From Candidatus Poribacteria bacterium (GTDB lineage: Bacteria > Poribacteria > WGA-4E > JAJDTR01), in contig CBDCTK010000002.1 of the NCBI GenBank assembly GCA_965222225.1, positions 4,320,001 to 4,384,000 on the forward strand: 64,000 bases of DNA. The letters are read 5' to 3'. Under the pieces are notes generated by a model that saw only the letters and a list, made by a program, of their open reading frames with translations, did no database searches and was not told where the DNA came from. How positions within the stretch are numbered: position 1 is the stretch's first letter; every line of letters begins with the position of its first letter. Positions 23,031 to 40,669 of the stretch are shown piece after piece. Made by a program: the position numbers and the translations under genes.

Positions 23031-23031
23031 G

Positions 23032-26696: not shown

Positions 26697-29546
26697 CTAG
26701 GTACTAAAACTATATTTTTGTTCGCGTTTCTGAAAAGCTTCTTTTCCACCCTCCAACACTTCGTAAACGTGCTGACGTTGTCCCTTCCTAAACAATATGG
26801 CTTCTTGTTTAGCTTCCGATAACTCAAAACTATTTTCCAAGGCACCAGAAACATATTCAAATTTGAATTGTTTGTTGTCCCTCCCTTTCTGTTGTCCTGC
26901 TTGATTCGCAACGATTACCTGTTCGGCATCCGCGCCAACAACCAAATTAGGATTGTGCGTTACTATAACTATTTGCCGTTGCTTTTTCTTGTTTTTGACG
27001 AACGAAACCAGTTCATCATAAACCGATCTATTGTCCAGGTCGTCCTCTGGCTGGTCCAATAATATCGGCCATTCCTCGTTACTCAAGTCAATAAGTAACC
27101 GGAGCAGTACAAGCCCCTTTTTGCCGGGAGACATCTTGTCCAAGGGATCATTCTTGTAGGTTATTTCGAAATCCAAATCAAAATAATCGTCCAATATCTT
27201 CGTCACTGCATCTTTCGCGGACCTGTTTTTTATCGTTTTTATGTTTCCGTCTACAACGCCACTTAGAATTTCTGTGATAAAGCTGACATGTGTGCTTGGG
27301 TCAAATTGATATTCATATTCATCCTTCCAATGTGCATCGCTAATGTTGCGTTTTATGTCCGACGTGTTTAGAACACTCTGTATAACTTCGTCGTTAAATC
27401 GCTCCGCATTAAAACCCACCGAGACATCCAACGATATAGATATATCTTCAAAACTATTTTCATACTTCTCAAACTCATTTCTTGCCGCATCGTAGCCGCT
27501 AAAAATTTCTCTGTAGGTTTCAATAAGGGATTTCTTTTCCTTGTCATAAAGATTCTTTTTTGATTCCAAGCTTTTCTTTTCAAGCGCAATCTTGTCCAGT
27601 TTTTTCTGCTCGTTGCTTATGGCTTCATTTTTCTTTTTCAATTCGTCCTGCAATTTAACCCTTGCCATAAATGGCGCGAGGTCTTTCTTAATTTTTTCAA
27701 GTTCCTTTTGATGAAGTTTTATTTTTGCGTCAACAGAAGTAATTATCTTATCAGTGCCCGCCAAAAGGTTTGTCTTTATTTGACCAATCCCAGCAAGCCC
27801 TTGAGTAAACTCATTCTTAATTTCCTCGTTGCCAAGATACGACGCTTGCACATCGCGCAATTCCTCTAAATTCTCTAATTGCTGGGATAAATCTTGCCTG
27901 AAAGAAGTAAGGTTCTTTTTGTCATCAGATAATACAGCGATGATCGTTGTTGTGCCTTTCTCCTTCTCTAACAGAGCCGCATAATCTTTAATTTCTTGCT
28001 CGGACAGGCCGGATTTTGATTTGATGCCATCGGCCTCCTTCTGTAGTTGGGCAATGTACTTTTTTATGCCCTTTTCTTCACCTAATTGTTTTATATTTTG
28101 CTCTATCTCTTCGATTTCCTGCTTCATCTGATAAAGATTGGCAACGCTTGCTGAAATTGATATTGATAGCCTTTTAATCTTGGTAAGAATGATTTCGTAA
28201 TGCTCGCGTAAATTCTCATCTTGTAACAGGACATCTCTAACAAACTGATTCAGTGTATCTCGGCCTATAACATCCTTCTCGGACAGCTTATTGAGATAAT
28301 TTTGTGGTATATAAAGGATTTTTCTGTTTCCCGCATCTTTTTCCCCCTCAACGCGCTTTAGGCGGGTAATGTCACCATCAGCCCATTCGACTTCAAAATC
28401 AAACTTCTGCAATTCGTCAAATCTGTATTGAGTAACAGCAGGAGGGTCGCCAAATCTGTATTCTACTTCGTGTCTATCGATAGTTTTCGCCATGTAGTAA
28501 AGAAGTAGGGACTTTCCAGTTGATTTCCCGCCAATTATTGTCGCTAGATTTTGATTGATCTCGATAGGATCCGAGGGAAAATCATGGTTGCCTGTGTTAT
28601 CTATAAATTGCACTTTGTCAATGAGATGGTAGGACTTTTTCGGTTCCGGTTTTTCATAACCGAAGGCAACGCGATCAACTGGTTCAAAAATTGTCTGTCT
28701 TAACCCTTCAAATGTTGTATCAGCCTTTATCCAGCTGAAGCCGTATCTCTCAACATCGTTGCTTTCTTGGACCGGCAACGTGAATTTCTTACCGAGTTGA
28801 ATTTCGCAATTATCGAAAGTGTGGCAATCGGATGTGGAAATCACTGGTTTTGGCTTAGCTTTTTTGTCCTTATTTTCATACCTATCTTCGTCGAAATAAT
28901 AGCCCCTGTCTTCGTCGTGGCCGAAGAATAAATCACAGAATTCATCAAAATCGTCCGATAGTGCCTTCTTGATGTTTGCATTTGCAATTGCGCGGTTACT
29001 GCCCATTCCCCTTGCTACACCAGCAATAAGAAATGGTTTGTCATTCCCAAAAGAGTCTTTTAGTGAATCGTCCAACGCTTTCTTCGTGACGCATATGCTA
29101 TCGTATCCGCCACAAGCGGTGATATCAGCGTCCGTACAGTAGGCCACCGCGCCATTTGTCATCCTATCCCTTAAGGGAAGACGAGTAAGAAAATCCTCGA
29201 TTGTGGTAATATCGTACTCATCATCAAAAATCAAATGACACTGAAGTTGCTCGGAAACTCTATTCACGCTTATATCTAGCCGAAGCTCGACACACGGAAA
29301 AAACCTTCTGTTTTTTAGTTCTGCGATGTCCTCTATCTTTGTTTTCAACGCTATATAGCTGGCAATAGAAAAATAATCAGTTATACCAAAGACTGATACA
29401 TCTGATTTCTTGATATATTCAATGAACCTTTCCCAGACATCAACGCCACGGTCGGGCTTATATTGGTCTGCGTGTTTAGCTCCAGGGACATGGATTTGTA
29501 GGTCCCACTTTCTCCACTCTGACCCTTTTGGATAATTATTATTCAT
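26697..29546 (-). CDS. PHP-domain + AAA/ABC ATPase (TrlF/Ppl-like), probable anti-phage protein
   Basis: 'GSEWRKWDLQIH', 'GITDY', 'TSDCH', 'WIKADTTFEGL', Walker A 'GGKSTGKS', coiled coil, 'MSPG', 'LLDQPEDDLDN', 'VTHN'; AT-rich. Confidence 0.85.
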   Translation of the reverse strand: MNNNYPKGSEWRKWDLQIHVPGAKHADQYKPDRGVDVWERFIEYIKKSDVSVFGITDYFSIASYIALKTKIEDIAELKNRRFFPCVELRLDISVNRVSEQLQCHLIFDDEYDITTIEDFLTRLPLRDRMTNGAVAYCTDADITACGGYDSICVTKKALDDSLKDSFGNDKPFLIAGVARGMGSNRAIANANIKKALSDDFDEFCDLFFGHDEDRGYYFDEDRYENKDKKAKPKPVISTSDCHTFDNCEIQLGKKFTLPVQESNDVERYGFSWIKADTTFEGLRQTIFEPVDRVAFGYEKPEPKKSYHLIDKVQFIDNTGNHDFPSDPIEINQNLATIIGGKSTGKSLLLYYMAKTIDRHEVEYRFGDPPAVTQYRFDELQKFDFEVEWADGDITRLKRVEGEKDAGNRKILYIPQNYLNKLSEKDVIGRDTLNQFVRDVLLQDENLREHYEIILTKIKRLSISISASVANLYQMKQEIEEIEQNIKQLGEEKGIKKYIAQLQKEADGIKSKSGLSEQEIKDYAALLEKEKGTTTIIAVLSDDKKNLTSFRQDLSQQLENLEELRDVQASYLGNEEIKNEFTQGLAGIGQIKTNLLAGTDKIITSVDAKIKLHQKELEKIKKDLAPFMARVKLQDELKKKNEAISNEQKKLDKIALEKKSLESKKNLYDKEKKSLIETYREIFSGYDAARNEFEKYENSFEDISISLDVSVGFNAERFNDEVIQSVLNTSDIKRNISDAHWKDEYEYQFDPSTHVSFITEILSGVVDGNIKTIKNRSAKDAVTKILDDYFDLDFEITYKNDPLDKMSPGKKGLVLLRLLIDLSNEEWPILLDQPEDDLDNRSVYDELVSFVKNKKKQRQIVIVTHNPNLVVGADAEQVIVANQAGQQKGRDNKQFKFEYVSGALENSFELSEAKQEAILFRKGQRQHVYEVLEGGKEAFQKREQKYSFST

Positions 29547-29548
29547 AT

Positions 29549-29803
29549 TTATCTCCCACATTTGATGCGATTATCTTGCTTGCACAACGTGTGGCAGTTC
29601 TCTGCTGTTGTTTTTCCGCCCTCATGCCAAGGGGTAATGTAATCGGCTTCCATATCTTCATTTACCCACTTGTCTTTCTTATTCTCGCCTTTGCAGAACG
29701 GACAAATGCCTTTTTGCCCCTCGTACGCTTCTCGCTTCATTTTGTCGGTGAAAGTGCGCATAGAGAGATGCTTTTCTTCACCTGCGAGTACATAAGGATA
29801 TAT
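29549..29803 (-). pseudogene. C-terminal HNH endonuclease fragment (DUF262-HNH type) cut by an IS
   Basis: IYPYVLAGEEKHLSMRTFTDKMKREAYE.Q.GICPFC...MEADYITPWHEGGKT...NC..LC...N. The usual DH is DY. The 5' part is replaced by an IS3 end. Confidence 0.78.
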
Positions 29804-29804
29804 G

Positions 29805-30031
29805 TGTGATTACCCCAAAACTAGACAGTTGAATAGGAGATCAATTCGACTAGAAAAATGGTCATCATATGAGCGAAAATAGGACTCGAAACCCCAAGAA
29901 AAAGAAAGGCGTTTCTCCACCATGTCCCGTAGAAAACAGCGTGATGGCCGATTCAAAGCGCAAGTGGCGTTTGAAGCTATCAAGAATCAGCAAACTATCA
30001 GTCAGATTGCCAGTGAATACGATGTCAATCC
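29805..30031 (+). mobile_element. IS3-family remnant (left IR + truncated OrfA)
   Basis: IR-like TGTGATTACCCCAAAACTAGACA; ORF 29922 'RKQRDGRFKAQVAFEAIKNQQTISQIASEYDVNP'; no OrfB. Confidence 0.75.
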
Positions 30032-30321
30032 AGCATCATCCCTTCCCATAACAACCTCCCTATTGCAGCAACAGCGTATAACAGTTGCAATTAACCTCTT
30101 AGGGAATTTTACCATAATGCAAATAGGAAAGCACTAAGGATTAATGAGTTTTTTGATAATCACGTTTCCCCTGTGTTGTTCGGTTACATCTGCCTGTGGC
30201 ATAACCGTTTGCACATTTTCACCTATTCCCATTAGCATTCTTTATGATAACATACGTTCGCATTAAACCTACAACCCGCAAACTAGTAGTCGCCAAAAAT
30301 CATGTGTGACGTGAAACTGTA

Positions 30322-30723
30322 TTGGAGCATTTGAAGATGATTCAAACCGTCATAAACCGATTGGCATGGAACAGTCTCTTGATTAAAGGCTGGAGCATGA
30401 CGCTCATAGTGGCTATGGTGTTGGTCGCGAGGAAGGATGTGGAAAACCCATATTTTGTCATTCCCCTAATTCTTCCCGCCCTAGTATTCTGGTTTTTGGA
30501 CGGATATTTCCTGCAGCAAGAAAGGTTGTTTAGAAAATTGTACGACGAGATTAGAGGCGAATGCGACACGGATTACAATATGGGTGTTGGTAGGTACAAC
30601 ACTGAAGTACGTTGGTTAAAGACAACCTTTTCAAGGACGTTAATTCCTTTCTATTTGATGGAGATTGCCATAGTAGTTTTTCTGTTTTTTGTAGTTGGCG
30701 CGAACACTTCTCCGACGACATAA
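30322..30723 (+). CDS. Small multi-TM protein (HL.MIQ.VI.R...NS..IKGW family)
   Basis: 'FWFLDGYFLQQERLFRKLYD' and ~3 TM segments; start uncertain. Confidence 0.65.
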   Translation: MEHLKMIQTVINRLAWNSLLIKGWSMTLIVAMVLVARKDVENPYFVIPLILPALVFWFLDGYFLQQERLFRKLYDEIRGECDTDYNMGVGRYNTEVRWLKTTFSRTLIPFYLMEIAIVVFLFFVVGANTSPTT

Positions 30724-31184
30724 CCAGCTCGTTATACAGAGGCACAATGAATTCAGCTTTAGAGGAGTCACCGCCGCACACGTGACCAGGACTCACGGGG
30801 CTTCCTCTCGCTTGGAGTCTGGAGCATCAAAGCCTGCGCCGTTACATTCAGTAACGTTAAAATCCCGCTGATAATCCGCAACAAGCACTACAAACACGAA
30901 GCAATATATTCCTCAATCGCCATCATGACCGGCCTACATCTATAATCTCAAAAAACTGCAATTCGCTGGCCTTGCGATCCTGATTCGTTTTTTTAACTCC
31001 GACAGACATGAATTGTGGTTAATTACAAGACTGTACAGTAACGTGGACAAATTCCGTGGTATTTCCAGTGCGCGATGGGCCCGATACTGCTTGGCGACCC
31101 GCGGACACTCCTAGAGAACTGAGCCCTGACTTTCGAGACGTTTAGCCAAGCGAATGAATTGGGTTAGAATAAGGAGAGATAGAG

Positions 31185-31928
31185 ATGAAACGGATTTTGT
31201 TTACTTTTGTTGTAGTGGTTACAGCACTTAATCTAGCGATTGCGCAAACGGGTAAAATCTATCCGGTGACAATAAATTCCGCTGAGCAGGTGTATGATGG
31301 TGACACCATTCAAGATGTAATGCTTAAAGTCTCGGATGCGTCTACTGCGTATGGTGAAGTGTGGCCGGGGGTTTATAAGCGTCCAGATGGAATCTATGTC
31401 AAGTTTGATTTACGCATAAATGGGATAGATACCCCGGAAATACGCCCAAGTCTAAAATCCCGCGATGGTACATCAAGGACAAAAGCTAGTCGTGATGCAG
31501 AAAAGAACATGGCATTGCAGGCAAGGTTGTTTGTAATTGACGTGCTTAAAACCAACAGTAATCGATTTAGCGTAGAGAATCCAAAGTTAGGTAAATATGC
31601 CGGACGTATGGTTGCTGATGTGAAGGTCGGCGAAATCAATCTTGCGGATTACCTTCTACAATCTGGTCTCGCCAAACCCTACAACGGAGGACAAAAGCCT
31701 TCATGGGACAAAAGCATCAACACCGCACGGCAAACTAGCAAGGTAACAAGACAACACGTCGGCCAAGCCCAACAAGAAAGCACCTCGTCCGAAAGTGTAT
31801 ACATTACAGGAAAAGGAAAAAAATATCATAGGAAGGGGTGTCGCTACCTGAAACACGACATCAAAATGCTGACACCGCAAAAAACGGAGAAAAATGGGTA
31901 TTCGCCTTGCTCCGTTTGCAACCCGTAA
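31185..31928 (+). CDS. Secreted thermonuclease (SNase) with C-terminal Ada-like metal-binding motif
   Basis: Signal peptide, 'VYDGDTI', 'RINGIDTPE', 'GKYAGR', 'GLAKPY'; 'VYITGKGKKYH..GCRYL...GY.PC.VC.P'. Confidence 0.88.
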   Translation: MKRILFTFVVVVTALNLAIAQTGKIYPVTINSAEQVYDGDTIQDVMLKVSDASTAYGEVWPGVYKRPDGIYVKFDLRINGIDTPEIRPSLKSRDGTSRTKASRDAEKNMALQARLFVIDVLKTNSNRFSVENPKLGKYAGRMVADVKVGEINLADYLLQSGLAKPYNGGQKPSWDKSINTARQTSKVTRQHVGQAQQESTSSESVYITGKGKKYHRKGCRYLKHDIKMLTPQKTEKNGYSPCSVCNP

Positions 31929-32223
31929 TGAATTACTCTGTCGTTGGTTAAGTTGCGGAGTCAAATCACGGATTATAGATGGCAAGCGATTTGGGGAAGG
32001 TTGCACGCACCGCCGTCCGATGAATGACCCTCGTTGTACTCACTGACACGATTGAAACACTCCCTTTCGGACTGGTGGCAAGCCCCGACGGCTATTCCGA
32101 GTTTCATCAAGTGGCTACAGGAGAACGCACGCTTTCGCGCGGATATGAAATACAAGGGCGGATCGCTTCGATTAACCGAGCCGGATATTCAAGTCCAACT
32201 ATAGAAGGTAAGGAGATTTTCCG

Positions 32224-32745
32224 ATGAAACTACTTTTACTCATTGCCGCTTTGATAAGCCTGTCGTCCTGCGCTTCAATTGAAAATCTTGGTCAAGCCCT
32301 TGGTGGTGGCGGGGTGGAACCCGTCGACGGCAAATACTACATAGAATTGACGTATTTTAAAGAATCGACGACCAAACACCACTTCAAGGGGAAGTCCCCC
32401 GCACAGGTTATGAAGAATCTCTCTGAAAATGCCTTTCTTAGAGAACAGCCGAAATATCTTTCTCGTGGTCGCGCCCAGGCGTATTATTACTGCCTTGACT
32501 CACCCCGGTTTGTTCGCTATGTCCAGCTACATACGGCAGCCCCGATAAAGAACATCGATGTCTATGTCTGGGAGGGGGAGAACTGGGTGATTGTCCGTCA
32601 ACTGTCAAAACCGATTAGCGCTAAAACTCGTATCGGCATCAATAGGCGCACGAGCGCTATTCGTGTTGTCCAAAAGACCGTGGACCTGGGACGAAAGCCG
32701 ATGGACAGGATTACGGACTTTGATGTATACGTCCAGAAAAAGTGA
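32224..32745 (+). CDS. Hypothetical lipoprotein
   Basis: Lipobox 'LSSC' after a hydrophobic leader; AAGGAG SD. Confidence 0.7.
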   Translation: MKLLLLIAALISLSSCASIENLGQALGGGGVEPVDGKYYIELTYFKESTTKHHFKGKSPAQVMKNLSENAFLREQPKYLSRGRAQAYYYCLDSPRFVRYVQLHTAAPIKNIDVYVWEGENWVIVRQLSKPISAKTRIGINRRTSAIRVVQKTVDLGRKPMDRITDFDVYVQKK

Positions 32746-33031
32746 GGATAGGCAAAAGGAACAACATCGATGAGTAAACTTCAAGACCTCGCCGCTCTCA
32801 TGCGCGATTCATCCGAACAACGAAGAAAAGGAGGTGATGATCGGTCTCCGTTCTCAGAGCGTCAGACGCCAAGACAAGCGCCGCGGTCGAGAGAAAGACG
32901 TTGACCTCACCGCCGTGTGCGATCACTGTCACGCCATGCTCCACCGAAAGTACGATCAACGCCGGTTGCGTTCTTTCTCGACTCACCCTCCCCTTTTGCT
33001 AACTTATACCGATGTTACTTCGATACCCTTG

Positions 33032-33229
33032 TCAGGGAGCGCAAGGATATAATCGGACGGATCTTTGTCGTCGTCCGTCCGTGTCGATCCGTTCGCTTTG
33101 CTTATAGTCCGCCAAAAAAGTCTCAATGATTCGCCGCATCGTTTGACCAACGGTCCTGTCGGTTTGCTCGGCAACCTCGCGTAACTCCTCGAGCACTTGC
33201 GGCGGCAATCGAAGAGAGCACACTTTCAT
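33032..33229 (-). CDS. Ribbon-helix-helix (CopG-like) DNA-binding protein
   Basis: 'VCSLRLPPQVLEELREVAEQTDRTVGQTMRRIIETFL' fits beta-alpha-alpha; GAGGT SD. Confidence 0.65.
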   Translation of the reverse strand: MKVCSLRLPPQVLEELREVAEQTDRTVGQTMRRIIETFLADYKQSERIDTDGRRQRSVRLYPCAP

Positions 33230-33482
33230 TACCTCGTCCTTTTCCTTTTTCGGGCGTCCGCGTATTGGCTCGCTCGTTTTTTCCCCCGCGTCTCCGTTGC
33301 CGGCTTTACCGCCCTTCCATTTTACCCTATCCCTCGCTCCAGTGCAAACCGTTAGAATTAACGTAATTTTTCGTATACTTTTATGTTGACGCTCTCAACC
33401 ACCATTACTTATAATTCCCGTTGAGCCAACAAAACTTCCCCGACAATACACTACTAACATTTTGCGACTATAATGAATCTCC

Positions 33483-33531
33483 TCTCCTTTACTTCCCATC
33501 TTTGAAACGGGCGATTGCGCCCCGTTCCGCC
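33483..33531. repeat. 49-bp direct repeat, copy 1 (recombinase 3' end + stop + SD)
   Basis: tctcctttacttcccatctttgaaacgggcgattgcgccccgttccgcc; 47/49 identical to 34888-34936. Confidence 0.92.
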
Positions 33532-34421
33532 ATTTCCGCCTTCGCGTAATGCGCCGGCATGTCCGCAGACTTCCATCTGCCCGCCGTCTGCATGTCCACA
33601 ACCGACGCCCCCGCCCGTGCCAATGATACCGCAGACCCTACACGGAGCGAGTGTCCACTGATGAATCCTTCCACGCCGGCTTCGGCAGACCACCGCTTGA
33701 TTGCGTCTCTCGCTCCGTTTGCCGTCAATCTGCCTTTGCCCAGGTGTTGCTGGTATCGCACTCTCCGGAACAATGCGCCGCGATCGATTCCCGACTTCCG
33801 CAGGTAACGCTTAATCACCCGCCGCGTGGATTCGCAGATATACAACGCCTCGCCGCGACCTTCCTGATCGGTCTTACTAGACTTGATCCGGAGCGTACTC
33901 CCCTTGATGTCCCCGACATTGACCGCAACCACTTCCGAGATACGCAACAGGCAATCGCTCATCAGGTTAATCAGCACAGAATCCCTCAGCCCCGCCAACG
34001 TCCGAGACGCTTCTGCGAAACTGGAGACCCGCTCCACATCCTTCCATGTCAACCCGTCCACTTGACCGCGACCGCGTTCCTTGCCTTCGCGCCGTATCCC
34101 CGCCAGTGTCCGCAAGGTGATTGCCCCTACCACATCCGGACGATCGATATTCTTGGCTTGCCACTTGACCGCCGCCACAACTTGAGCAATCGTGCTAGGG
34201 GCTTTGCCGCACTGGTGGAGTTGCGTGATGTATTCGGCAACCACGGCGTCTTTGAGAGGTTCGCTATTCGCTCGCTTCATTGCATACAGCCATGCGTTCA
34301 ACTCCACTAACGCCCTTCGATACGCTTTGAGCGTGTTATCCGATACGCCGGCTTTGATCAACTCCTTCGTGTCCACACTGATTGCGACTGCGTTCTTTTG
34401 CCCGATTGCCAATGCGTCCAT
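33489..34421 (-). CDS. Cre-like tyrosine recombinase, intact
   Basis: N-terminal 'S.NT.KAY' core-binding domain; catalytic R (LLRISE), K (SKTDQ), HSLR, Cre-type W (GRWKS), Y (HYA). Confidence 0.92.
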   Translation of the reverse strand: MDALAIGQKNAVAISVDTKELIKAGVSDNTLKAYRRALVELNAWLYAMKRANSEPLKDAVVAEYITQLHQCGKAPSTIAQVVAAVKWQAKNIDRPDVVGAITLRTLAGIRREGKERGRGQVDGLTWKDVERVSSFAEASRTLAGLRDSVLINLMSDCLLRISEVVAVNVGDIKGSTLRIKSSKTDQEGRGEALYICESTRRVIKRYLRKSGIDRGALFRRVRYQQHLGKGRLTANGARDAIKRWSAEAGVEGFISGHSLRVGSAVSLARAGASVVDMQTAGRWKSADMPAHYAKAEMAERGAIARFKDGK

Positions 34422-34437
34422 GATCCACCCCCCCCCG

Positions 34438-34881
34438 TTAATCCGACAACCAGATTTGTCCGTTCTTGCCGTTCAGCATGACAAACCCGTTATTCTTGTC
34501 AACGCCCATCAATGCGCCGCGGTCGATCGATGGGTTCTTGTCATTAACCGCGACGAACCCGCCATGCCCTCCGATCGACATCCGAGCGTCGCCTTTGTGT
34601 CCCGCGACATTGATTCGCCCTCCGGTTTTATCGATGGTCATGATCGCGACGCCCTTCTCGCCATATACTACGACACTCCCGCCGTGTTCTTCGCTATTGA
34701 TGACAACGCTGGCGTAGCCGTCCGCACCTCGCACTCTAACCTCATCACAGGTTATCGTCCCAAACTCCGCATCCTTCACATCGTTTTGCGCTCCGAGTGG
34801 CGCGAACGAACCCGCCGCCATCACCAGAACCGCCCCGACAACGCCACCAATTATCGCCGCATAGATCGCGTCTTGTTTCAT
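34438..34881 (-). CDS. Membrane-anchored 'FGxITC' beta-repeat protein, paralog 1
   Basis: N-terminal TM, 'EFGTITC', repeated 'EHGG.V.V.G.KG' strands; its SD lies inside repeat copy 2. Confidence 0.75.
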   Translation of the reverse strand: MKQDAIYAAIIGGVVGAVLVMAAGSFAPLGAQNDVKDAEFGTITCDEVRVRGADGYASVVINSEEHGGSVVVYGEKGVAIMTIDKTGGRINVAGHKGDARMSIGGHGGFVAVNDKNPSIDRGALMGVDKNNGFVMLNGKNGQIWLSD

Positions 34882-34887
34882 CTGTTT

Positions 34888-34936
34888 TCTCCTTTACTTT
34901 CCATCTTTGAAACGGGCGATCGCGCCCCGTTCCGCC
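34888..34936. repeat. 49-bp direct repeat, copy 2
   Basis: tctcctttactttccatctttgaaacgggcgatcgcgccccgttccgcc. Confidence 0.92.
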
Positions 34937-35556
34937 CGCTCTATTATTTTAGCTAATCGCCGTGTTACCCACACCATCAGCAGCACAATGGCGAGCAAGC
35001 CAAATGCTTGTCCGCCACTTTCTCGTCCTTCCACTATCTTCGGTACCGCTTCGGTCACGGCTCGGACACTGCTGACGAGTATATCCCCCATACCGATCAC
35101 GGCGGCGCCGACCATACCGCTCCTGCCGGCACGTTTCTCTTGGGTCTCCCACCACTCTTTCGTTACCGGTCTCCAATCCCCCTCGATGGCAGACTCGCCG
35201 AACCGCTTGGGCGCGTCGGCGTAACGGCGCAGCCTAGCCGTGCCTTGCCCAATCCGCTGTCGCGCTTCGTTGTAGGTATGCCCTTCGCCCATCTCGTCGA
35301 AGATGAACTCCGCATCGCCGATAGAGAGTTCGCCCGATATCAGACGGCTCGCCAAGTCCTGTCCGTCCGGGTGTTCGTCCCACCACTTGTCAAGGTCCAT
35401 ATCCGCAAAGTTCTTGCCGGTGGTATCCGATTCTGGCATTGGATTTACTTGCTCAACTGCGCTCGGTTCGTTGAGCAGCGAAATGCAGGTCCCGATGATT
35501 ATTCCGACCAGCACGCCGCCTGCTATCCTGTAATACAGTCGCACTCTTGGCTTCAT
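34894..35556 (-). CDS. Membrane protein ending in the recombinase's last 13 residues (AERGAIARFKDGK)
   Basis: N-terminal and C-terminal hydrophobic helices; GGAGGTG SD; C-terminus encoded by repeat copy 2. Confidence 0.7.
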   Translation of the reverse strand: MKPRVRLYYRIAGGVLVGIIIGTCISLLNEPSAVEQVNPMPESDTTGKNFADMDLDKWWDEHPDGQDLASRLISGELSIGDAEFIFDEMGEGHTYNEARQRIGQGTARLRRYADAPKRFGESAIEGDWRPVTKEWWETQEKRAGRSGMVGAAVIGMGDILVSSVRAVTEAVPKIVEGRESGGQAFGLLAIVLLMVWVTRRLAKIIERAERGAIARFKDGK

Positions 35557-35624
35557 GATTCCATCACCTCCATGCAGCGTGTTATTTCCTCGATAGTCTC
35601 GTTAGTTTTAAGAGCTAGATTTTT

Positions 35625-36212
35625 TCAGTCCAACGTAGCCAACTTCCCGTTCTTGTCCGTCGTCGTCACCTCTCCGTTGCCGTCTTCTTTAACACCCATT
35701 GCAGCGCCGGATTTTCCATCCTCGCCAACCACGCGGACGACACCACCATCTTTATCAACGAACATCGACGCGCCGGATATTCCTCCAGACACGCTGACAG
35801 CGCCGCCATATTCATAGATTCGCATCGACGCGCCGCTGGTTAGTGTATCCTTGTCAGCCACGTGGATGTAACCGCCGCCATAAATTCCCATTTCTGCCCT
35901 GGCTTTTCCCTCCTCGCCAACCACGCGGATGCGCCCGCCATGTTCATCAACGACCATTGACGCGCCGGTTTTTCCATCCTTGCTATAAACGCGGACGACA
36001 CCGCCCTTGCCGTATTCATCACCGCGCATTTCCGCGCCGAGCTCTCCCTCCGCGTCAACCACCTTTATCTCCCGACAGGTTATCGTTCCGAACACCGCAT
36101 CCGGAGCGTTATTAAACGCCCCGCTCGGAGAGGTCAACCCCGCCGCCAACATGCCAACCAACATCAAGAACCCACCCAACGCGATATATCCCAATTTCTC
36201 TCGGTATTTCAC
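35625..36212 (-). CDS. Membrane-anchored 'FGxITC' beta-repeat protein, paralog 2
   Basis: TM, 'VFGTITC', ~22-aa 'A.M..DEHGG.VRV...DGK' repeats, ending 'DKNGKLATLD'; AAGGAG SD. Confidence 0.78.
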   Translation of the reverse strand: MKYREKLGYIALGGFLMLVGMLAAGLTSPSGAFNNAPDAVFGTITCREIKVVDAEGELGAEMRGDEYGKGGVVRVYSKDGKTGASMVVDEHGGRIRVVGEEGKARAEMGIYGGGYIHVADKDTLTSGASMRIYEYGGAVSVSGGISGASMFVDKDGGVVRVVGEDGKSGAAMGVKEDGNGEVTTTDKNGKLATLD

Positions 36213-36225
36213 GATGCTTCTCCTT

Positions 36226-36360
36226 TCATTTCAGCGTTTCCAAGCGATAGCCGTTCTTGTCCCAAGTATTTACCGCACCGTTCCCAAACCCATTAACGCC
36301 TGTTGCGGCTCGGTTTGGTGTACATGGCAAAAGACCTGGACGCGCCCGCCATGTGCATAA
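36226..36360 (-). pseudogene. C-terminal remnant of a fourth 'FGxITC' paralog
   Basis: Manual translation AATGVNGFGNGAVNTWDKNGYRLETLK* versus AMMAVNEYGNGAVGTWDKNGYRLATLK* of 38087-38776. 'HGGRVQVF' lies upstream in a shifted frame. Confidence 0.82.
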
Positions 36361-36401
36361 TCAATCTTCTTAGCTCTTCAGAGCGCTCAATCCAAGCCGC
36401 G

Positions 36402-36728
36402 TTATCGCGTTATCTTGTAATACCCTGTGGCTGGCGACTCCAGTAGCCCGCGCCTGACAAGAGATCTACATGGGGCATTGCAGAGATGGTAGAAAACGTT
36501 GTCCCCATTCGGGTAACGCCTATTCCTCTGTTCCGTGGTAAGGGTAAACTGCTCTGCCAACGCATCCACAATTTTCTTACATCTGTGTTCTCCACCCCTT
36601 GCAACGTACCGAACGATAGCCTCTTCAATGTCACTATCCTCAGGCATATCAGGGTGTACCATCCTTTCCATAATGAATCTCCTTGTTTTAACATGATGAT
36701 GCTCCTGGGCGAACGATGGCATTACCAA
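36402..36728 (-). CDS. Stand-alone Mrr N-terminal (winged-helix) domain protein
   Basis: 'IVDALAEQFTLTTEQR....PNG..VF.......L...GLLESP..GYYKIT'; no nuclease domain follows. Confidence 0.72.
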   Translation of the reverse strand: MVMPSFAQEHHHVKTRRFIMERMVHPDMPEDSDIEEAIVRYVARGGEHRCKKIVDALAEQFTLTTEQRNRRYPNGDNVFYHLCNAPCRSLVRRGLLESPATGYYKITR

Positions 36729-37268
36729 CCCCCAGCGAGTCAGCCGACAACCTAAAATTGCGATTGTCTAAAGTAATAATTGACTATCTACGGTATCGAA
36801 GAACATAAAGCAATACCGAAAACTTTTATCCATTGCTACTTTTCACTAAAGAACCAATCAAGCGGCTGAATAAGGAGCAACCGAGTGAATAACGAGGGAT
36901 CAAAGGAATGAATAATGACTGCGATAGAAAGTCTTGATAGTGATCCCAATGAGATAGAACTCCCATAGAGGTTCCCTGCGCACCAGTCTCTAGATAGCCT
37001 TCTTCCTAGACAAGCCTGCGAACTATACGCCGGGAGCAAGCGAAATGACCAGACACTAGACTTCCCGGTTTACGCGCCGACAAAGTGAAAATGTTCTGTG
37101 AGAAATGAAAATTGAAAAAATTCTGTGTGAATTTATGTGCAGGCAAGGCTTAATATCGCAAGGGTACCCAGATCGGGGATCGCATCTCTTGGCGCGACAC
37201 GGTTGATGCTCTGAGATTGCCGACTGGGAAAAGGGAAGGCAAAGATACTGGGAAACCATCACCCATCA

Positions 37269-38073
37269 TCACTTCCCATAGAAGAACCGAGCCACCGCCC
37301 CCCGTTCCGCCAGCTCCGCCCGCGCATAATGCGCCGGCATCTTTGGACCCTTCCATCTCCCCGCCGTCTGCATATCCACCACCGAGGCCCAGCTTGCGCC
37401 AACGACACCGCAGCCCCCACACGAAGCGAGTGTCCGGAGATGAATCCCGCAACACCCGCTTCGGCAGCCCGGCGCTTAATCGCGTTCCGAGCTCCGTTCA
37501 CCGAAAGCCTATCTGGTGTGATATGCTTCTGCCAGCGCACTCTCCGGAACAGAGCGCCCTCCTCTATCCCGGCAGCTTTACGATACTTCCGAATTACTTT
37601 GTGAGTCGGAGCTCCGACATACAACGCCACGCCTTCGCCCTCCTGATCCGCCTTACTGGCGCGAACCGTGAGCACCTTGCCGATATCCTCGACGTTGACC
37701 GCGACCACCTCCGAGATTCGCAACAAGCAATCGCTCATCAGCCGCATCATCGCCGAATCCCTCAGCCCCGCCAATGTCTTGCTCGCTTCCGCAAACGAAC
37801 ACACGCGCTCCATGCCCACCCGCGTTAGCCCGTCCACCTGACCGCGGCAACCGCTTGAGCGATAGTCGCCGGCGATCTCCCCGCAGTATGCAGCTCTGCA
37901 AAATATTCCGCCAACAGCCGATCATCAAGACCCCGACCCCCCAGCCAGTTTTCCAGCTTCTTCAGTGCGTGCCGATACGCTTTCAGCGTGTTATCCGACA
38001 CACTCGCCCGAATCAGATGTGCCGTACCTACCGATACCGGCATGTTTGCTTCTACTCGTGTTAGTTGATTCAT
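37269..38073 (-). pseudogene. Second Cre-like tyrosine recombinase, disrupted
   Basis: Clearly homologous to 33489-34421. It has an internal deletion (AAV to RGQVDG) and two apparent 1-nt losses in G runs. The restored end reads HYARAELAERGAVARFFYGK*. Confidence 0.88.
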
Positions 38074-38086
38074 AATTCGCCCTCTT

Positions 38087-38776
38087 TTACTTCAACGTTG
38101 CCAATCGATACCCATTCTTATCCCAGGTGCCAACCGCGCCGTTCCCGTACTCATTCACGGCCATCATCGCTTGTCCTTCTGAATCTCCCTTGCCTTGAAC
38201 GGAGACGAATCCACCATTGTCATTGACGCCAATAATCGCCCCGCCGGTGTCCATCTCTTTGCCCACAGCACCTAGGAAACCGCCCTGCTCGTTGATTTCC
38301 ACCGATGCCTTTCCTCTGTTCTCTCCCTTGCCATAAACCGAGAGATGTCCACCGTGCTCATTAACCCCTATAACTACATGCTTTCTTAGAAGGTTGCCGT
38401 AAATTTCGACTGTTCCATCGCGCGTTTGTCCGTTCATAAATCCCAATTGTACGCTTTTAACAGAGGCGGCATCACGATTCTCCATACGGGGAAAGCACAT
38501 TATATGCCCTCCATACTCACCAGCCTCCATAAACACACCGCGGAGATACGTAGGCGTGTTCGACCAGATTCCAACAATGCCACCAGTTTCCCCAGAACCG
38601 AGCTCAACCATCGGACGCCCCGCAGGATTAATCACCTTCAACCCCGTACAAGTTATTTCCCCAAACCTATCCGATTGACCTTGCACTCCAAGCGGGAAAA
38701 ACGAACACACCACCATCGTCAACACCGCTCCAACACATCCGCCTATTACCGCATACAACCGCTCTTTTGCTTTCAT
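38087..38776 (-). CDS. Membrane-anchored 'FGxITC' beta-repeat protein, paralog 3
   Basis: TM, 'RFGEITC', 'GVNEHGG.L.V.GKG' repeats; ends 13 bp upstream of the second recombinase. Confidence 0.8.
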   Translation of the reverse strand: MKAKERLYAVIGGCVGAVLTMVVCSFFPLGVQGQSDRFGEITCTGLKVINPAGRPMVELGSGETGGIVGIWSNTPTYLRGVFMEAGEYGGHIMCFPRMENRDAASVKSVQLGFMNGQTRDGTVEIYGNLLRKHVVIGVNEHGGHLSVYGKGENRGKASVEINEQGGFLGAVGKEMDTGGAIIGVNDNGGFVSVQGKGDSEGQAMMAVNEYGNGAVGTWDKNGYRLATLK

Positions 38777-38891
38777 GCGTTTATCCTTTCATGCGAAAAC
38801 AATAATTCTTCAACTATAAATAACCGTAATCACCTAGACTCCAACTAGATGCGGTCTATTAAGAACTTTGCCCTGGCATACTACCTGCGCT

Positions 38892-39752
38892 TTAGCTGTT
38901 TAGCACGCCAATCGCCTTAAAACAAGTCAGCGCTAACCTTCGAAATTGACTTAGGTAACACTCTTGCTCATCTCTCTGCCAGTCTTGTGGTACATTCGCT
39001 GGATGGCCCGCTTCGTTCCGATTTAGGCGGTATATGTTAGCCAATCCCTCCAACTTCCCCTTGAGTTCACTTCGCAATGTTGGATCCAAGGATTTGAATA
39101 AGTCGGTTGCCTTATCCACTAAGTGACGTGTTAATGCGGATATATTGGGCTTGCTGTCAATATCGCCCTTGCATTGCGGATTGCATAGAATTACCGCTTC
39201 CGCAAGACACTTTATAGTTCTCTCGGACGCTGCTCCGAGACAGATAACCGAGGAAATATAATTTCCGTTTTGGCAAGTACGCAGACTCTCCAAGTAATAC
39301 TGCTCCACAACCCCATCGAGATTGGGAATCTCCTTTTTCAGTGATTGCACAATCTCAAGTGATTGCACAATTTCATAGGGATCATCCACTAAAATCATTA
39401 TCCCGTCATCAAACTCCGACTTTTCACCGACGGACGTGAGACGAACACTACCATGTACAGTGGGAACATAACCTTCGCAACACCACTAATTTGCCTCCAT
39501 CAGCAATCCCCGTTGCTTGAGCCGCCCAATTGCTTCGTAAAACTTAAAAAGAAACGACTTATTTTTTTTGATATAACTACCATCGTCATCCTCCTTTCCA
39601 TACCTAGACTTCCGGGGGCAAAGTTGATTCTGCAAATCCTCTAAGCCGATACAGGGTAGATGCCGCTCTTTTTTCAAAAAGCAAAAAATAACTCGTGTAA
39701 GTTCCTCTATAGTGCACTGCTCCCTCTGTGTCTTATCCAACGCAAAATTCAT
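38892..39752 (-). pseudogene. HEPN-like (RxxxxH) protein split by one in-frame TAG
   Basis: ORFs 39486-39752 and 38892-39398 share a frame (MEAN*WCCEG...DGIMILVDDP); C-terminal 'RNEAGH'; GGAGA SD. Confidence 0.6.
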
Positions 39753-39886
39753 AACATTTCTCCTTCTAATCGTGCGAACTTAGTTTGGTTGTCGTTCTTT
39801 ACTGAAATTGACGGAATGTCAATCCAGCAATAAACAAACCTCGCAAAACCATCGTATTGTGTATAAGGGAAATACAACCAAGTGAA

Positions 39887-40669
39887 TTACTTCTCACTCT
39901 CCTTTGCCTTATCCCAGATTTCGTCGAGGCCTGCCAAATCGTAATCCTTGAATGAATCGCCGCGGCGTTCCAGTTCCTTCTCCATCGCCTTGAAACGACC
40001 GACAAACTTGCGATTTGCCTTCCGTAGCGCCTCCTCCGCCTGCACATCCAGAAATCGACACAAATTGACAATCGAAAATAGGAGGTCGCCAATCTCCAAC
40101 TCAATCTCTTTAGGGTTACTATCTTGGATGCTCGCCTTCAATTCGGCAATTTCTTCGTCGATTTTTGGGAGCACGTCTGAAATGTCGTTCCAGTCGAATC
40201 CCACGCGGGCGGCTTTGCGCTGAAGCTTCTGCGCTCGTTGCAGGTTCGGCAAGTGGTCAGGAACCCCGTCAAGAACGGATTTGCGATCTTCATAGCCCGA
40301 TTCACTTCGCTTAATCCGTTCCCAGTTCTTAAAAACCTGATCCGTATTGTTCGCGTCTTGGTCGCCGAAAACGTGCGGATGGCGGCGGATGAGTTTCTCT
40401 GTAAGTATCTTGATGACATCGCCGATGTCAAATTCTCCCTCATCTCTTGCGATTTGTGCGTGCAGCATGACATTGCCAAGGAGATCGCCGAGCTCTTCCC
40501 GTAGTTTCGTTGAATTTCCGGCGTCAATCGCTTCAACAACTTCATAGGTTTCTTCAATGAGATCTGGTTTAATCGATTCGTGAGTCTGTTCGCGGTCCCA
40601 CGGACAGCCGTTTTCACTTCGCAGCGTGGCAAAGACTTGCACCAGTTGATTGAAAAGTTCTTTGTGCAT
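39887..40669 (-). CDS. mazG: Nucleoside triphosphate pyrophosphohydrolase MazG
   Basis: 'LR...GCPWDREQT', 'EE.YE', 'EELGDLL', 'KLIRRHPHVF', 'GFDW', 'E.GDLLF'. Confidence 0.95.
   Translation of the reverse strand: MHKELFNQLVQVFATLRSENGCPWDREQTHESIKPDLIEETYEVVEAIDAGNSTKLREELGDLLGNVMLHAQIARDEGEFDIGDVIKILTEKLIRRHPHVFGDQDANNTDQVFKNWERIKRSESGYEDRKSVLDGVPDHLPNLQRAQKLQRKAARVGFDWNDISDVLPKIDEEIAELKASIQDSNPKEIELEIGDLLFSIVNLCRFLDVQAEEALRKANRKFVGRFKAMEKELERRGDSFKDYDLAGLDEIWDKAKESEK

Follow-up and report, generated by a model that had tools for sequence, protein, structure and literature searches.

A partly decayed array of envelope-protein and Cre-like recombinase genes in Poribacteria

A gene for a membrane-anchored protein carrying an FGxITC motif (FG), followed by a gene for a Cre-like tyrosine recombinase (REC), constitutes a real and undescribed module of Poribacteria. 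It is repeated in the stretch of 64,000 nt analysed here (the window), from the genome of a sponge symbiont (Candidatus Poribacteria). The FG genes lie beside recombinase genes that are mostly broken, a state that speaks for an old module of mobile or cassette-like type and not for an established shuffling system. The reading we favour, at a probability of slightly under one half, takes the locus to be a tandem array, in part decayed, of a Poribacteria-specific FG-REC module and the fossil of a formerly mobile unit.

Organization of the locus

All open reading frames listed for the array are on the minus strand (Table 1), and the gene order, gaps and remnants given in a preliminary description of this DNA were each found in place. 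This includes the spacing of 13-16 bp between FG stop and recombinase start, which amounts to 16 nt for FG1/REC1 and 13 nt for FG3/REC2. The interspersed repeat has more than 150 blastn matches in the genome, with a 31-nt core present in 40 exact copies. No tRNA gene lies within the window.

Table 1. Features of the array and of the island that contains it (window coordinates)
Feature	Position	Strand	Remarks
Strain-specific island holding the array	23031-39886	.	flank matches in 9 other genomes of the genus
UzuA (defence gene)	25461-26408		E 8e-82
Ppl/AriA-like ATPase (defence gene)	26697-29561
ORF173, small protein	32224-32745	+	travels with FG/REC arrays elsewhere
RHH/CopG-like small ORF	33032-33229	-	downstream of REC1; weak RHH_1 match
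49-nt direct repeat, copy 1	33483-33531	.	REC1 3' tail, stop codon and ribosome-binding site
REC1, intact Cre-like tyrosine recombinase	33489-34421	-	310 aa; PF00589 and PF02899
FG1, type-B N-terminus and body Y	34438-34881	-	147 aa; FGTITC-coding motif at 34747-34764
49-nt direct repeat, copy 2	34888-34936	.	TM gene 3' end and FG1 ribosome-binding site
TM protein, two predicted hydrophobic helices	34894-35556	-	220 aa; C-terminus copies the recombinase C-terminal helix
FG2, type-A N-terminus and body X	35625-36212	-	195 aa; motif at 36075-36092
FG remnant, C-terminal part	36229-36312	-	ends 13 nt ahead of the FG2 start
Mrr_N-domain protein	36402-36728	-	Pfam Mrr_N E 4.6e-11; recurrent passenger downstream of REC
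Interspersed-repeat copy	36852-36976	.	inserted between REC2 and Mrr_N
REC2, recombinase pseudogene	37259-38073	-	internal deletion and frame shifts
FG3, type-B N-terminus and longest body	38087-38776	-	229 aa; motif at 38648-38665
ORF168, unknown protein recurring with arrays	38892-39398	-
ORF88, travels with ORF168	39486-39752	-

A strain-specific island contains the array. Matches in 9 other genomes of the genus run up to position 23030 on the left flank and begin at about 39876-39900 on the right; other species of the genus keep both flanks in synteny, but at places far apart. The G+C content is 0.39-0.47 at 24-32 kb of the window. A strain-specific island with defence genes is a point against a working FG/REC system, as are the fragmentary state of most adjacent recombinases, the many FG genes that lack a recombinase neighbour and the negative searches for lox-like, attC and inverted sites described below.

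Several passengers accompany the recombinases. The order REC then Mrr_N is also found at loci L009 and L030, and a remnant of the Mrr_N ribosome-binding site and start (repeat family D13) follows the REC1 stop. Homologues of ORF173 follow REC on the same strand in L009 (genome G019) and in L041 (own genome, 4.82 Mb), relative to which ORF173 is inverted in the window; its only Pfam match is a weak one to DUF3568, and its N-terminus looks like a lipoprotein signal. ORF168 has paralogues at C2:4231715 (62 %) and, adjoining a REC pseudogene, at C2:4827296 (46 %). The order ORF88-ORF168-FG is kept in G010 (L027; ORF88 identity 58 %) and ORF88-ORF168-REC tail in G122 (L029; 44 %). The ORF described as encoding a ribbon-helix-helix protein exists, but that assignment is weak (RHH_1 E 9e-4, just below the cut-off; Arc E 1.2e-3 in Pfam; PHROG repressor families E 1.5e-4), and at none of the other fetched loci was an RHH-like ORF seen next to REC.

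The FG protein family

FG1-3 have no match in Pfam or in any other protein family searched, and FG2 has none among 50,697 phage records. The FG remnant, proposed as such in the preliminary description, is 71 % identical (E 2.5e-6) to the C-terminal residues 202-229 of FG3. The structure model of FG2 (pLDDT 78) comprises an N-terminal transmembrane helix (residues 3-23) and 14 beta strands. Such a predicted fold, a membrane helix and then a meander of beta hairpins, makes the FG proteins look like variable envelope proteins, and the earlier suggestion of variable surface proteins also agrees with their differing repeat numbers and mosaic architecture. Each FG gene has a start codon and a ribosome-binding site to itself, and all share one orientation. 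FG genes are present in 100 of the 121 Poribacteria genomes and mostly have no recombinase with them: the 51 FG matches of G003 come with a single adjacent recombinase remnant, the 17 of G084 with no adjacent REC. The presence of FG does not depend on REC.

The recombinases

REC1 matches the Pfam families Phage_integrase (E 1e-17) and Phage_int_SAM_1, as do both pieces of REC2. Its best solved relative is Cre (E 3e-13, residues 52-307), and the catalytic residues R160, K183, H257, R260, W283 and Y292 are invariant or nearly so among 30 homologues, so that the Cre-type R-K-HxxR-W-Y set noted earlier is borne out. An identity as integron integrase was rejected (21 bits against an IntI cut-off of 265); together with intergenic gaps of 12-68 nt, too small for attC, this agrees with the earlier statement that the locus is unlike integrons. 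REC2 is indeed a pseudogene: its matches are spread over three frames with two in-frame TGA codons, and about 30 residues are missing after residue 88, as read from the ORFs and the sequence. Contigs of all four sequencing runs compared have one extra base behind position 37387 in REC2.

The REC family is found in 53 of 121 Poribacteria genomes, with 1-10 matches each, and 53 of the 76 rows of the REC tree have no common neighbour. In these respects it behaves like recombinases of mobile elements. A sister clade (n = 15) always lies downstream of another gene, X. The FG-adjacent recombinases do not form one clade, this label requiring 5 changes on a quick tree, on deep branches. The two intact FG-linked recombinases of the genome, REC1 and REC2334, are 76-79 % identical; these copies are thus old and give no sign of a recent burst.

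Recurrence of the module and decay of the recombinases

With adjacency defined as an FG gene at most about 100 nt upstream of a REC place and on the same strand, 21 of 55 places in eight genomes of the genus are FG-adjacent (own genome, G000, 8/19; G019 2/8; G031 3/6; G010 2/4; G017 1/4; G082 1/3; G103 1/5; G115 3/6). By our own arithmetic about 0.01 would be expected by chance, and the association is far beyond chance. Among 86 REC places of at least 200 aligned residues within the fetched loci, FG is directly adjacent at 13, in three families of Poribacteria and including the genera g3, g4, g5 and g10. The repeated FG-recombinase unit claimed for this locus hence recurs in its own genome, in all eight tabulated genomes of the genus and in four other genera. 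REC is tightly flanked on both sides in the window and at L040, L028 and L058; the last, in G101, belongs to a distant REC lineage and keeps a tight FG-REC-FG order, the distance from the REC stop to the FG start being about 7 nt in one reading and 15 nt in another. Arrays of similar order in other states of decay are present at L030 (G115), L009 (G019) and L027 (G010).

The recombinases next to FG genes are for the most part fragments or pseudogenes. At the eight FG-adjacent places of G000, REC1 and REC2334 alone are intact; in other genomes the adjacent genes are mostly stubs of the N-terminus, ranging from residues 1-45 to residues 1-124, or tails, whose first residue lies anywhere from 175 to 284. 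Such scattered end points fit random deletion and not a fixed break site. In G031, 26 FG matches stand against not one full-length match to a recombinase of the FG-linked kind; the sole REC match of near full length in that genome (1251042-1251914, 54 % identity) falls in the X-linked clade of the tree.

Mosaic FG genes

The FG proteins are mosaics in which three body types each occur with two N-terminal types, the switch lying at the FGxITC motif. Body X is joined to type A in FG2, P0001 and P0002 and to type B in P0003-P0005; body Y to type B in FG1 and to type A in P0009, P0010, P0011 and P0014; and body Z to type A in P0012 and to type B in P0024, P0033, P0040 and P0043. The type-B N-termini of P0003-5 share, by eye, only about 55 % identity with that of FG1, and the four forms are therefore not exact reciprocals of one another. 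In run X11, from another sponge metagenome, a contig (depth 23) joins the FG2 N-terminus to the FG1 body, the runs compared consisting of short contigs from mixed strains. At this joint, position 36075, the last base of the FG2 motif, is followed by 34724, with 1350 nt skipped and 22 other letters that encode P0009-type sequence. The X11 allele thereby lacks the segment X body - TM gene - tail - B N-terminus, which is flanked by direct motif copies and carries a recombinase tail but no recombinase body. Moreover, three matches to the B-type N-terminal module (in G031 and G019) stop with the final base of the FG1 motif (34747); that of a paralogue in the own genome stops one base earlier, at 34748.

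At the switch patch, FG1 and FG2 share only 12 nt of uninterrupted identity, which is short for ordinary homologous recombination. The isoleucine codon of the motif is ATA in 25 of 31 genes of the genus and ATT in 14 of 15 genes from genera with few RECs; judging from these letters, the N-terminal module is homogeneous at the DNA level in the latter genera as well. Searches for lox-like (13-8-13), attC and inverted sites at the locus, for inverted repeats at gene borders and for a dyad-symmetric site around the motif in 34 genes all came out negative, as did those for element ends, target duplications and att sites at the loci examined. The lack of inverted sites, which had served to set the locus apart from shufflons, is in keeping with this. 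As to the proposal that recombinases drive the shuffling, the variation of FG was recovered; the drive by the recombinase was not, and most FG-adjacent recombinases are fragments. No recombination site emerged, and neither rearranged reads nor circles were observed.

The TM protein and its recombinase tail

The last 15 residues of the TM protein are those of the REC1 tail, the two copies of the 49-nt direct repeat (family D7) being 96 % identical; copy 1 holds an imperfect palindrome. The junction from tail to FG recurs after the intact paralogue REC2334 (C2:2334180-2334221). The TM protein, which matches no Pfam, NCBIfam, PHROG or PADLOC family, has 19 homologues, and the tail is at the C-terminus in 12 of the 13 aligned. 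The recombinase tail reported earlier is thus real, and it belongs to a conserved protein family and not to a one-off fusion. Its retention across the family is something that simple decay does not explain. When the TM tail was docked on REC1 in a structure model, three runs scored 0.70, 0.70 and 0.00 (best control 0.00). Of 80 solved complexes 58 attain the pass mark, and of 110 mismatched pairs 2 do so. Contact agreement between the runs is at least 0 %, and the partner pLDDT is at least 42. Since the TM tail copies the recombinase's own helix, this pass may only reflect a memory of Cre structures.

Origin of the array and alternative explanations

The module consists of an envelope FG gene (TM helix, FGxITC and a variable number of beta-hairpin repeats of about 22 residues) and, 13-35 nt downstream on the same strand, a Cre-like recombinase gene, often followed by passengers (Mrr_N, ORF168, ORF173, TM protein) and the next FG gene. 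In the history that we favour, the recombinases would be a selfish, once mobile, site-specific family whose tie to FG dates from early in the order. Alternating FG-REC-FG arrays, the present one within a strain-specific island, could have arisen as FG-REC(-passengers) units were inserted or duplicated time and again, and most recombinase copies would afterwards have decayed through internal deletion and frame shifting. What remains of them at the 5' and 3' ends may have been kept because these ends adjoin other genes and provide the ribosome-binding sites of those genes. The FG genes would have stayed open and diversified fast, through changing numbers of repeats and through swaps of N-terminal modules at the FGxITC-coding junction. 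The anatomy, recurrence and decay of the module, the mosaic alleles and the island setting are observed; we infer the mobility, the order of these events and an FG diversification that needs no recombinase. In favour of this history are the recurrence of the unit, the scattered decay, the like-ordered arrays of other species, the resemblance of the REC family to mobile-element recombinases, the independence of FG from REC, the codon homogeneity in genera with few RECs and the island setting. Several observations speak against this fossil reading: the persistence of the tight FG-REC-FG order in a distant REC lineage exceeds what a hitch-hiker requires, the FG-adjacent recombinases are not one clade and carry that label on deep branches, the searches for element ends, target duplications and att sites were negative, the copies are old with no recent burst, the switches occur at a patch with only 12 nt of identity, and the tail is intact on the whole TM-protein family.

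Some of these features would suit an active or recent cassette exchange, which we regard as unlikely. The Cre-like recombinase would act at the FGxITC-coding DNA and/or the tail/ribosome-binding-site/N-terminus module; co-oriented FG genes would recombine so that a body, the next gene or genes and an N-terminal module leave as a circle, and the circle, on inserting into another FG gene, would split it and restore two complete genes. If true, this would yield FG-REC-FG arrays as well as new combinations of envelope N-terminus and body. The occurrence of all three bodies with both N-terminal types, the X11 joint and the motif-bounded, tail-bearing segment missing there, the ends of the B-type module matches, the four tight REC sandwiches and the complete catalytic set of REC1 all argue for it. 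However, the missing segment has no recombinase body, the A|Y allele could equally result from a single deletion between two copies of the motif, and the short mixed-strain contigs are unable to show circles. The same reading is further weakened by the non-reciprocal forms, by the absence of a dyad-symmetric site in the 34 genes, by codon homogeneity in genera with few recombinases and by the death of most recombinases, with G031 keeping 26 FG matches beside no full-length FG-linked kind.

That the recombinase is a domesticated regulator, switching the expression of FG or its neighbours on or off in a phase-variable manner, through excision or inversion of a segment, while the TM protein restrains it, seems to us quite improbable. 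Recombinase genes do adjoin surface-protein families, for instance at Mycoplasma Vpma/Xer1 (PMC2268961, PMC5634654), ORF173 is inverted relative to REC, and the TM tail passed in docking; but co-oriented FG genes each with its own start and ribosome-binding site, gene borders devoid of inverted repeats, a docking pass that may be memory, and a preponderance of pseudogenes unlike a host regulator all weigh on the other side. We attach least credence, and very little, to a remnant of a known element (prophage, integrative conjugative element, plasmid module or integron), such as an integrase-family gene beside a CopG-like ORF in a variable island with defence genes might suggest. PHROG matches were obtained for only 2 of 10 proteins searched (the small repressor-like ORF and the integrase), among plasmid recombinases the best reaches 34 % identity at 94 % coverage, FG2 is unmatched in phage records, the integron-integrase score is far below its cut-off, the gaps leave no room for attC, and the window is without a tRNA gene.

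Comparison with known systems

The Mycoplasma systems employ a single recombinase, which inverts DNA between sites in 5' regions and thereby places one gene at a time under a single promoter; Vsa/HvsR of M. pulmonis is a comparable locus of variable surface lipoproteins with a recombinase. For M. agalactiae, two papers describe the Vpma/Xer1 surface lipoprotein locus with its adjacent tyrosine recombinase (PMC2268961, PMC5634654). The FG arrays share with these loci an envelope multigene family with a conserved N-terminal part, a repeat-rich variable part and a clustered tyrosine recombinase. They differ in that the FG genes are co-oriented with their own starts, that several mostly broken recombinases are interleaved, that no inverted sites were found, and that the proteins are unrelated, FG having no family match.

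REC1 resembles Cre of phage P1 in its catalytic set, with Trp for the second His, and in a homologous C-terminal helix. Unlike Cre/loxP, identity is low, no 13-8-13 lox-like site was found, and the REC genes are chromosomal, multi-copy and beside FG genes, not in a phage or plasmid. The shufflon (Rci/sfx), which inverts C-terminal segments of one gene, likewise has a tyrosine recombinase next to alternative surface-protein segments, whereas the FG locus consists of complete co-oriented genes without inverted repeats. Rci recognises asymmetric sites, according to one report (10.1101/2024.10.25.620183). With integrons the locus shares an array of small, co-oriented genes whose functions are unknown, close to a tyrosine recombinase and within a variable region; the two are set apart by REC1 not being IntI, by the lack of attC-sized gaps and by a recombinase gene that is repeated inside the FG array.

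Finally, tRNA-targeting islands and icd-targeting prophages insert in a gene and carry a replacement end, restoring one 3' end. In the cassette model, an element entering at the FGxITC junction would similarly restore coding on both sides; unlike those elements, the proposed cassette would supply both a 5' and a 3' module and so give two complete genes.

Organisation of the array and of its island

The genome that carries the window has a size of 5.7 Mb, and Poribacteria are uncultivated sponge symbionts. Related genomes found by a pattern scan are all "Candidatus Poribacteria" MAGs, and one recombinase homologue is likewise so named. Between 33.0 and 39.8 kb of the window every gene lies on the minus strand. 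In the direction of the genes, the array starts with ORF88, ORF168, FG3, REC2 (broken), an interspersed repeat, Mrr_N and an FG C-terminal remnant, and goes on with FG2, the TM protein, FG1, REC1 (intact) and a small RHH-like ORF. FG1 to FG3 are membrane-anchored beta-repeat proteins with an FGxITC motif, REC1 and REC2 are Cre-like recombinases, and ORF168 and Mrr_N are small passenger genes. Only 13 nt separate FG3 from REC2 and 16 nt FG1 from REC1. The C-terminus of the TM protein corresponds to the last 15 residues of REC1, and this REC1-like tail sits in a 49-nt direct repeat, the two copies of which are 96% identical.

The stretch around the array that lacks a syntenic counterpart in other species, where both of its flanks are conserved, is listed in the table. 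In those species the flanks (window 23030 and 39887) lie hundreds of kb to Mb apart, as in G019 (0.28 Mb versus 1.73 Mb), and the island is therefore located at a synteny break point. Its G+C is lower. This strain-specific island also contains the Uzume defence gene UzuA and a 954-aa ATPase. There is no tRNA gene within the window, and the window as a whole gives no match in Rfam.

Coordinates of features in the window and of the intact X-linked recombinases in the same genome
Feature	Location	Remark
Island	window 23031-39886
UzuA	window 25461-26408	E 8e-82
954-aa ATPase	window 26697-29561	partial Ppl/AriA/GajA-like matches
SNase-like ORF	window 31185-31928	secreted
TM protein	window 34894-35556	recombinase-like tail
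Interspersed repeat	window 36852-36976	partly tandem
Short repeat family	window 14641-14851	~210 nt
Short repeat family	window 29805-30035	~230 nt
Short repeat family	window 32043-32193	~150 nt
X-linked recombinase L044	G000:C2:460255-461202	intact
X-linked recombinase L115	G000:C2:1313887-1314765	intact
X-linked recombinase L039	G000:C2:3335622-3336533	intact
X-linked recombinase L116	G000:C2:3989323-3990198	intact
X-linked recombinase L117	G000:C2:4161168-4162079	intact

Class of the recombinases

REC1 and the REC2 piece match Phage_integrase (PF00589) with 64.9 and 41.5 bits, respectively (Pfam cut-off 27.1), and REC1 also matches an N-terminal SAM-like domain in Pfam. Among 30 homologues R160, K183, H257, R260 and Y292 of REC1 are invariant and W283 nearly so; these catalytic residues align to the Cre active-site motifs. 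Cre chains are the closest solved structures (E 3e-13, residues 52-307), followed by a XerC-like family at E 1e-4, and REC1 possesses the C-terminal helix characteristic of the Cre type. The residue set and the nearest solved relative thus uphold the Cre-type assignment made in the preliminary description.

REC1 does not belong to the XerC/XerD chromosome dimer resolvases, with 72 bits for XerD (cut-off 330) and 64 for XerC (cut-off 335), and the gene is present in several copies. The integron integrase model TIGR02249 gives REC1 21.2 bits with a cut-off of 265, and judged by their size the gaps between genes (12, 13, 16 and 68 nt) are too short for attC sites; the array is indeed unlike integrons, as had been proposed. 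The same holds for shufflons (Rci), since all array genes are co-oriented and no recurrent inverted repeats were found. No lox-type repeat (two ~13-bp inverted arms with a 6-8 bp spacer) recurs at gene borders, and the tail palindrome is imperfect. Identity with a known prophage or plasmid module, which had been left as a possibility, found no match in comparisons with PHROGs, phages and plasmids: among the 10 proteins searched for prophage, ICE or plasmid genes PHROGs matched just the integrase and a repressor-like ORF, FG2 had no phage match, and plasmid recombinases are at most 38% identical.

The FG protein family

FG1 to FG3 belong to no family in Pfam, NCBIfam, PHROGs or PADLOC. The same is true for eight of nine further hits of the FG profile, the ninth being an ankyrin protein and probably false. 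Following the suggestion that the fold be predicted, an AlphaFold model of FG2 (17-row alignment, pLDDT 78) was obtained, in which a predicted TM helix (residues 3-23) and a disordered linker precede 14 short beta strands arranged in hairpins. Foldseek relates this model weakly to single-layer or hairpin-repeat sheets (OspA, TCP10, MORN) with TM scores of 0.27-0.45 and a best E-value of 6e-3 (OspA), and a profile search of the FG alignment against the PDB returned nothing under E 0.02.

The family occurs in 100 of 121 Poribacteria genomes with 1 to ~50 matches each. Against 1.84 billion representatives its profile gave 4253 matches with E <= 0.001, 252 of them reaching E <= 1e-30. These counts must be read as upper bounds of family size because this Gly-rich profile with its ~22-residue period cross-matches other repeat proteins. 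One of them is P0324, an ankyrin/NACHT giant of 3597 aa matched in 18 stretches at E 2e-36; with an ankyrin protein among the high-scoring hits, the low end of the list of 4253 is not clean. Repeat bodies evolve fast. A search at E <= 1e-8 did not find the FG1 body in nine congeneric species, and in three related family-f2 loci the recombinase ORF is 87-89% identical and ~100 nt of the FG N-terminus align, while the FG bodies are unalignable.

Linkage of FG genes and recombinases

The proposal that FG gene and recombinase form a repeated module is borne out in related genomes. In the genome of the window (G000) an FG gene lies directly upstream and on the same strand at 8 of 19 recombinase places, and in seven further congeneric genomes at 2/8, 3/6, 2/4, 1/4, 1/3, 1/5 and 3/6 places. 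Paralogous arrays of G000 lie at C2: 2.324-2.339 Mb, 4.823-4.832 Mb and 5.489-5.504 Mb. This amounts to 21 of 55 places in eight genomes, where about 0.01 would be expected by chance according to our own arithmetic. Across three Poribacteria families, FG directly adjoins 13 of the 86 recombinase places that have at least 200 aligned residues in the loci fetched around recombinase matches (L001, L002 and L005, duplicates of L008, L007 and L011, were left out of the counts), and 7 of the 13 belong to four other genera, g3, g4, g5 and g10. An FG gene 12-29 nt past a recombinase stop also recurs: from the tail to FG1, from REC2334 (the second intact FG-linked recombinase of the genome) to its FG neighbour, and at L028 and L058. 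The FG family is physically linked to a Cre-like recombinase family in three bacterial families.

Among the 76 intact recombinases of a quick maximum-likelihood tree, those next to FG occupy at least five separate positions, some of them deep; in a clade of 15 rows an unknown gene, X, always comes before the recombinase, and 53 rows share no neighbour. Five sequences were excluded for in-frame stops (L009, L019, L028, L041 and L047), all but L047 being FG-adjacent. Recurrence of the adjacency across genera, together with the scatter of FG-adjacent rows on the tree, makes the tie an old one that is widespread throughout the order, though universal for neither partner.

Decay of the recombinases

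REC1 and REC2334 are the only intact FG-linked recombinases of the genome, the other copies being frame-shifted or reduced to tails or N-terminal stubs (from residues 1-45 up to 1-124). Other genomes show a like picture: G031 has 26 FG matches and its FG-linked recombinases are present as fragments only, G003 has 51 matches and one adjacent recombinase remnant, and none of the 17 matches of G084 is recombinase-adjacent. Tail fragments begin at varied residues (175-284), a scatter that fits what random deletions would produce. Arrays in other genomes resemble that of the window in gene order but differ in their state of decay: FG, REC 1-45, Mrr_N, FG, FG and a broken REC in G115 (L030); FG, REC with a stop, Mrr_N, the passenger ORF173 and FG in G019 (L009); ORF88, ORF168, FG and a REC stub in G010 (L027). 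The complete downstream FG gene of L009 aligns with that of L041 at 81%.

At window position 37387 each of the four other sponge metagenomes has contigs with an additional base, which would remove one frame shift of REC2; this shift is hence either strain-specific or a mistake of the assembly in a short run of G. REC2 keeps its internal deletion of ~30 residues regardless.

Mosaic FG genes

FG genes carry one of two types of N-terminal module, A starting with MKYREKLGYIALGG and B with MK..YA(A/V)IGG, and each of the three body types (X, Y and Z) is found with both. Body X follows type A in FG2, P0001 and P0002 and type B in P0003-5; body Y follows type A in P0009, P0010, P0011 and P0014 and type B in FG1; body Z follows type A in P0012 and type B in P0024, P0033, P0040 and P0043. 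The switch falls at the FGxITC motif, which is encoded at 34747-34764 in FG1, 36075-36092 in FG2 and 38648-38665 in FG3. P0010, for example, combines the N-terminus of FG2 with the body of FG1 at high identity. Three matches to the B-type module in G031 and G019 stop at the final base of the FG1 motif (34747), and that of a paralogue in the genome itself stops one base earlier, at 34748; around the motif, FG1 and FG2 share just 12 uninterrupted identical bases.

One metagenome contains an allele in which the intervening segment is missing. In a contig of run X11 (depth 23) the final base of the FG2 motif (window position 36075) is joined to 34724 in FG1. At the joint 1350 nt are left out and 22 other letters, coding for P0009-type residues, are present. 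The segment absent from this allele comprises the X body, the TM gene, the tail and the B N-terminus, and has a direct copy of the motif at either end. Such evidence comes from short Logan contigs of four runs with mixed strains. Joints with sides of 20-36 nt were not counted, nor was a joint from 34889 to 33490 (13 letters between), all being indistinguishable from paralogues; the latter matches the paralogous REC2334-to-FG junction. Stretches of the locus with low depth were likewise left aside.

Two other candidate sites were considered. The junction between the 3' end of FG and the start of REC was rejected: its spacers are unconserved, and the 3' ends of FG1, FG2, FG3 and the remnant show many synonymous differences. 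The 49-nt tail repeat and several tail-only remnants resemble att copies but were not adopted as such; the fragment starts vary between genomes. Moreover, the gene that follows has its ribosome-binding site within the recombinase tail, and this tail is conserved in the TM protein family, so that its retention by selection fits equally well.

The TM protein

The TM protein has 19 homologues, and 12 of the 13 aligned end in a recombinase-like tail. Both ends of the family, N- and C-terminal, are nearly invariant, and the middle is variable. In other assemblies two TM paralogues seemingly lie on one contig (40913 and 12084 nt), judged from equal sizes only. When REC1 (30-row alignment) was modelled together with TM residues 170-220, three runs scored 0.70, 0.70 and 0.00, the best control reaching 0.00. 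Of 80 solved complexes 58 attain the pass mark used, as do 2 of 110 mismatched pairs; contact agreement in the runs was at least 0% and partner pLDDT at least 42. In the model TM residues 204-218 would contact REC1 residues 126, 156-158, 173-176, 190-198 and 263-280. The C-terminal helix of Cre docks on the neighbouring subunit, and since the tail duplicates the corresponding helix of the recombinase, the docking pass may just mirror likeness to solved Cre assemblies.

X-linked recombinases and repeats

The five intact X-linked recombinases listed in the table belong to a sister clade with ~57% identity to REC1. Gene X (~330 aa), which has no Pfam or PHROG family, comes before every one of them, and the five X-REC copies share 78-91% DNA identity along ~2.3 kb. 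The pairing is seen in 15 of 15 clade members from 11 genomes.

The interspersed repeat of the array consists of ~31-36-nt modules, often enclosed by short complementary ends. Over 150 blastn matches to it lie in the genome, and its 31-nt core is found in 40 exact copies across G000:C2. Direct copies stand on both sides of two X-REC modules (C2:460 kb and 4161 kb), and single copies adjoin two more (C2:1314 kb and 3336 kb). Compared with shuffled sequence it shows no gain in folding (z 0.16). It might be either REP-like or a site for a recombinase. Copies of the three short repeat families of the window are numerous in several or all genomes of the genus (73-91% identity), and none of these families has an Rfam match at the gathering score.

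Interpretation and comparison with known systems

The reading that we prefer, with a probability of slightly under one half (about 0.48), regards the locus as a fossil. An old selfish module of FG gene plus recombinase would have built the alternating arrays, most recombinases would later have been lost, and the FG genes would have gone on diversifying. An alternative that is possible, if on the unlikely side, has the recombinase act at FGxITC or tail junction modules and move cassettes in such a way that both flanking genes are restored. This would account for the tight FG-REC-FG order in distant lineages, for the fixed switch point and for the segment-less allele, but it comes with neither a defined site nor a direct sign of activity. 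The recombinase-driven array of variable surface proteins put forward in the preliminary description is upheld in part: the module recurs and the FG proteins do look variable, with no evidence that the recombinase drives this variation.

A more explicit proposal, which we consider unlikely, places the site of the Cre-like recombinase inside the coding sequence of an envelope protein, at FGxITC, where signal-anchor and repeat body meet. The enzyme would excise or insert a segment made of body, recombinase or passenger genes and a new N-terminal module; insertion would split a resident gene and restore two complete ones, leading to family growth and chimeric proteins, and the TM family with its copied trans-docking helix would bind and modulate the recombinase. 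However, dyad symmetry at the motif is only weak and not clear over 34 genes, the B N-termini found on body X differ from that of FG1, and a single deletion could yield the A|Y form. The Ile codon of the motif is ATA in 25 of 31 genes of the genus, but genome-wide the share of ATA among Ile codons is 14.9%. This bias was rejected as proof of a DNA site and kept only as weak evidence, because in other genera with few recombinases ATT is equally uniform (14 of 15), which makes codon homogeneity at the motif a lineage-wide trait that is not tied to the recombinase. A regulatory switch fits the locus poorly and is improbable; a known element type, likewise a poor fit, is more improbable still. Set against these alternatives, the fossil reading remains the one that we favour.

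If the recombinase does act at the junction, the locus would represent a new way of building and shuffling surface-protein genes via co-oriented sites and a possible source of new Cre-like enzyme/site pairs. If it is inactive there, the locus would be a clear case of a selfish recombinase fossilised within a host gene family, and would still offer a testable example of a membrane protein with a putatively captured recombinase docking helix. At the level of abstracts, searches of the literature on Poribacteria tyrosine recombinases, and broader ones, brought up no description of such a module, which agrees with the earlier remark that no described system has this layout. Mycoplasma switches of the Vsa/Vpma type (Vpma/Xer1) have one expression site and silent genes that lack a promoter or start. 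Here, in contrast, every FG gene comes with a start codon and a Shine-Dalgarno-like sequence of its own, the level at which the two are compared.
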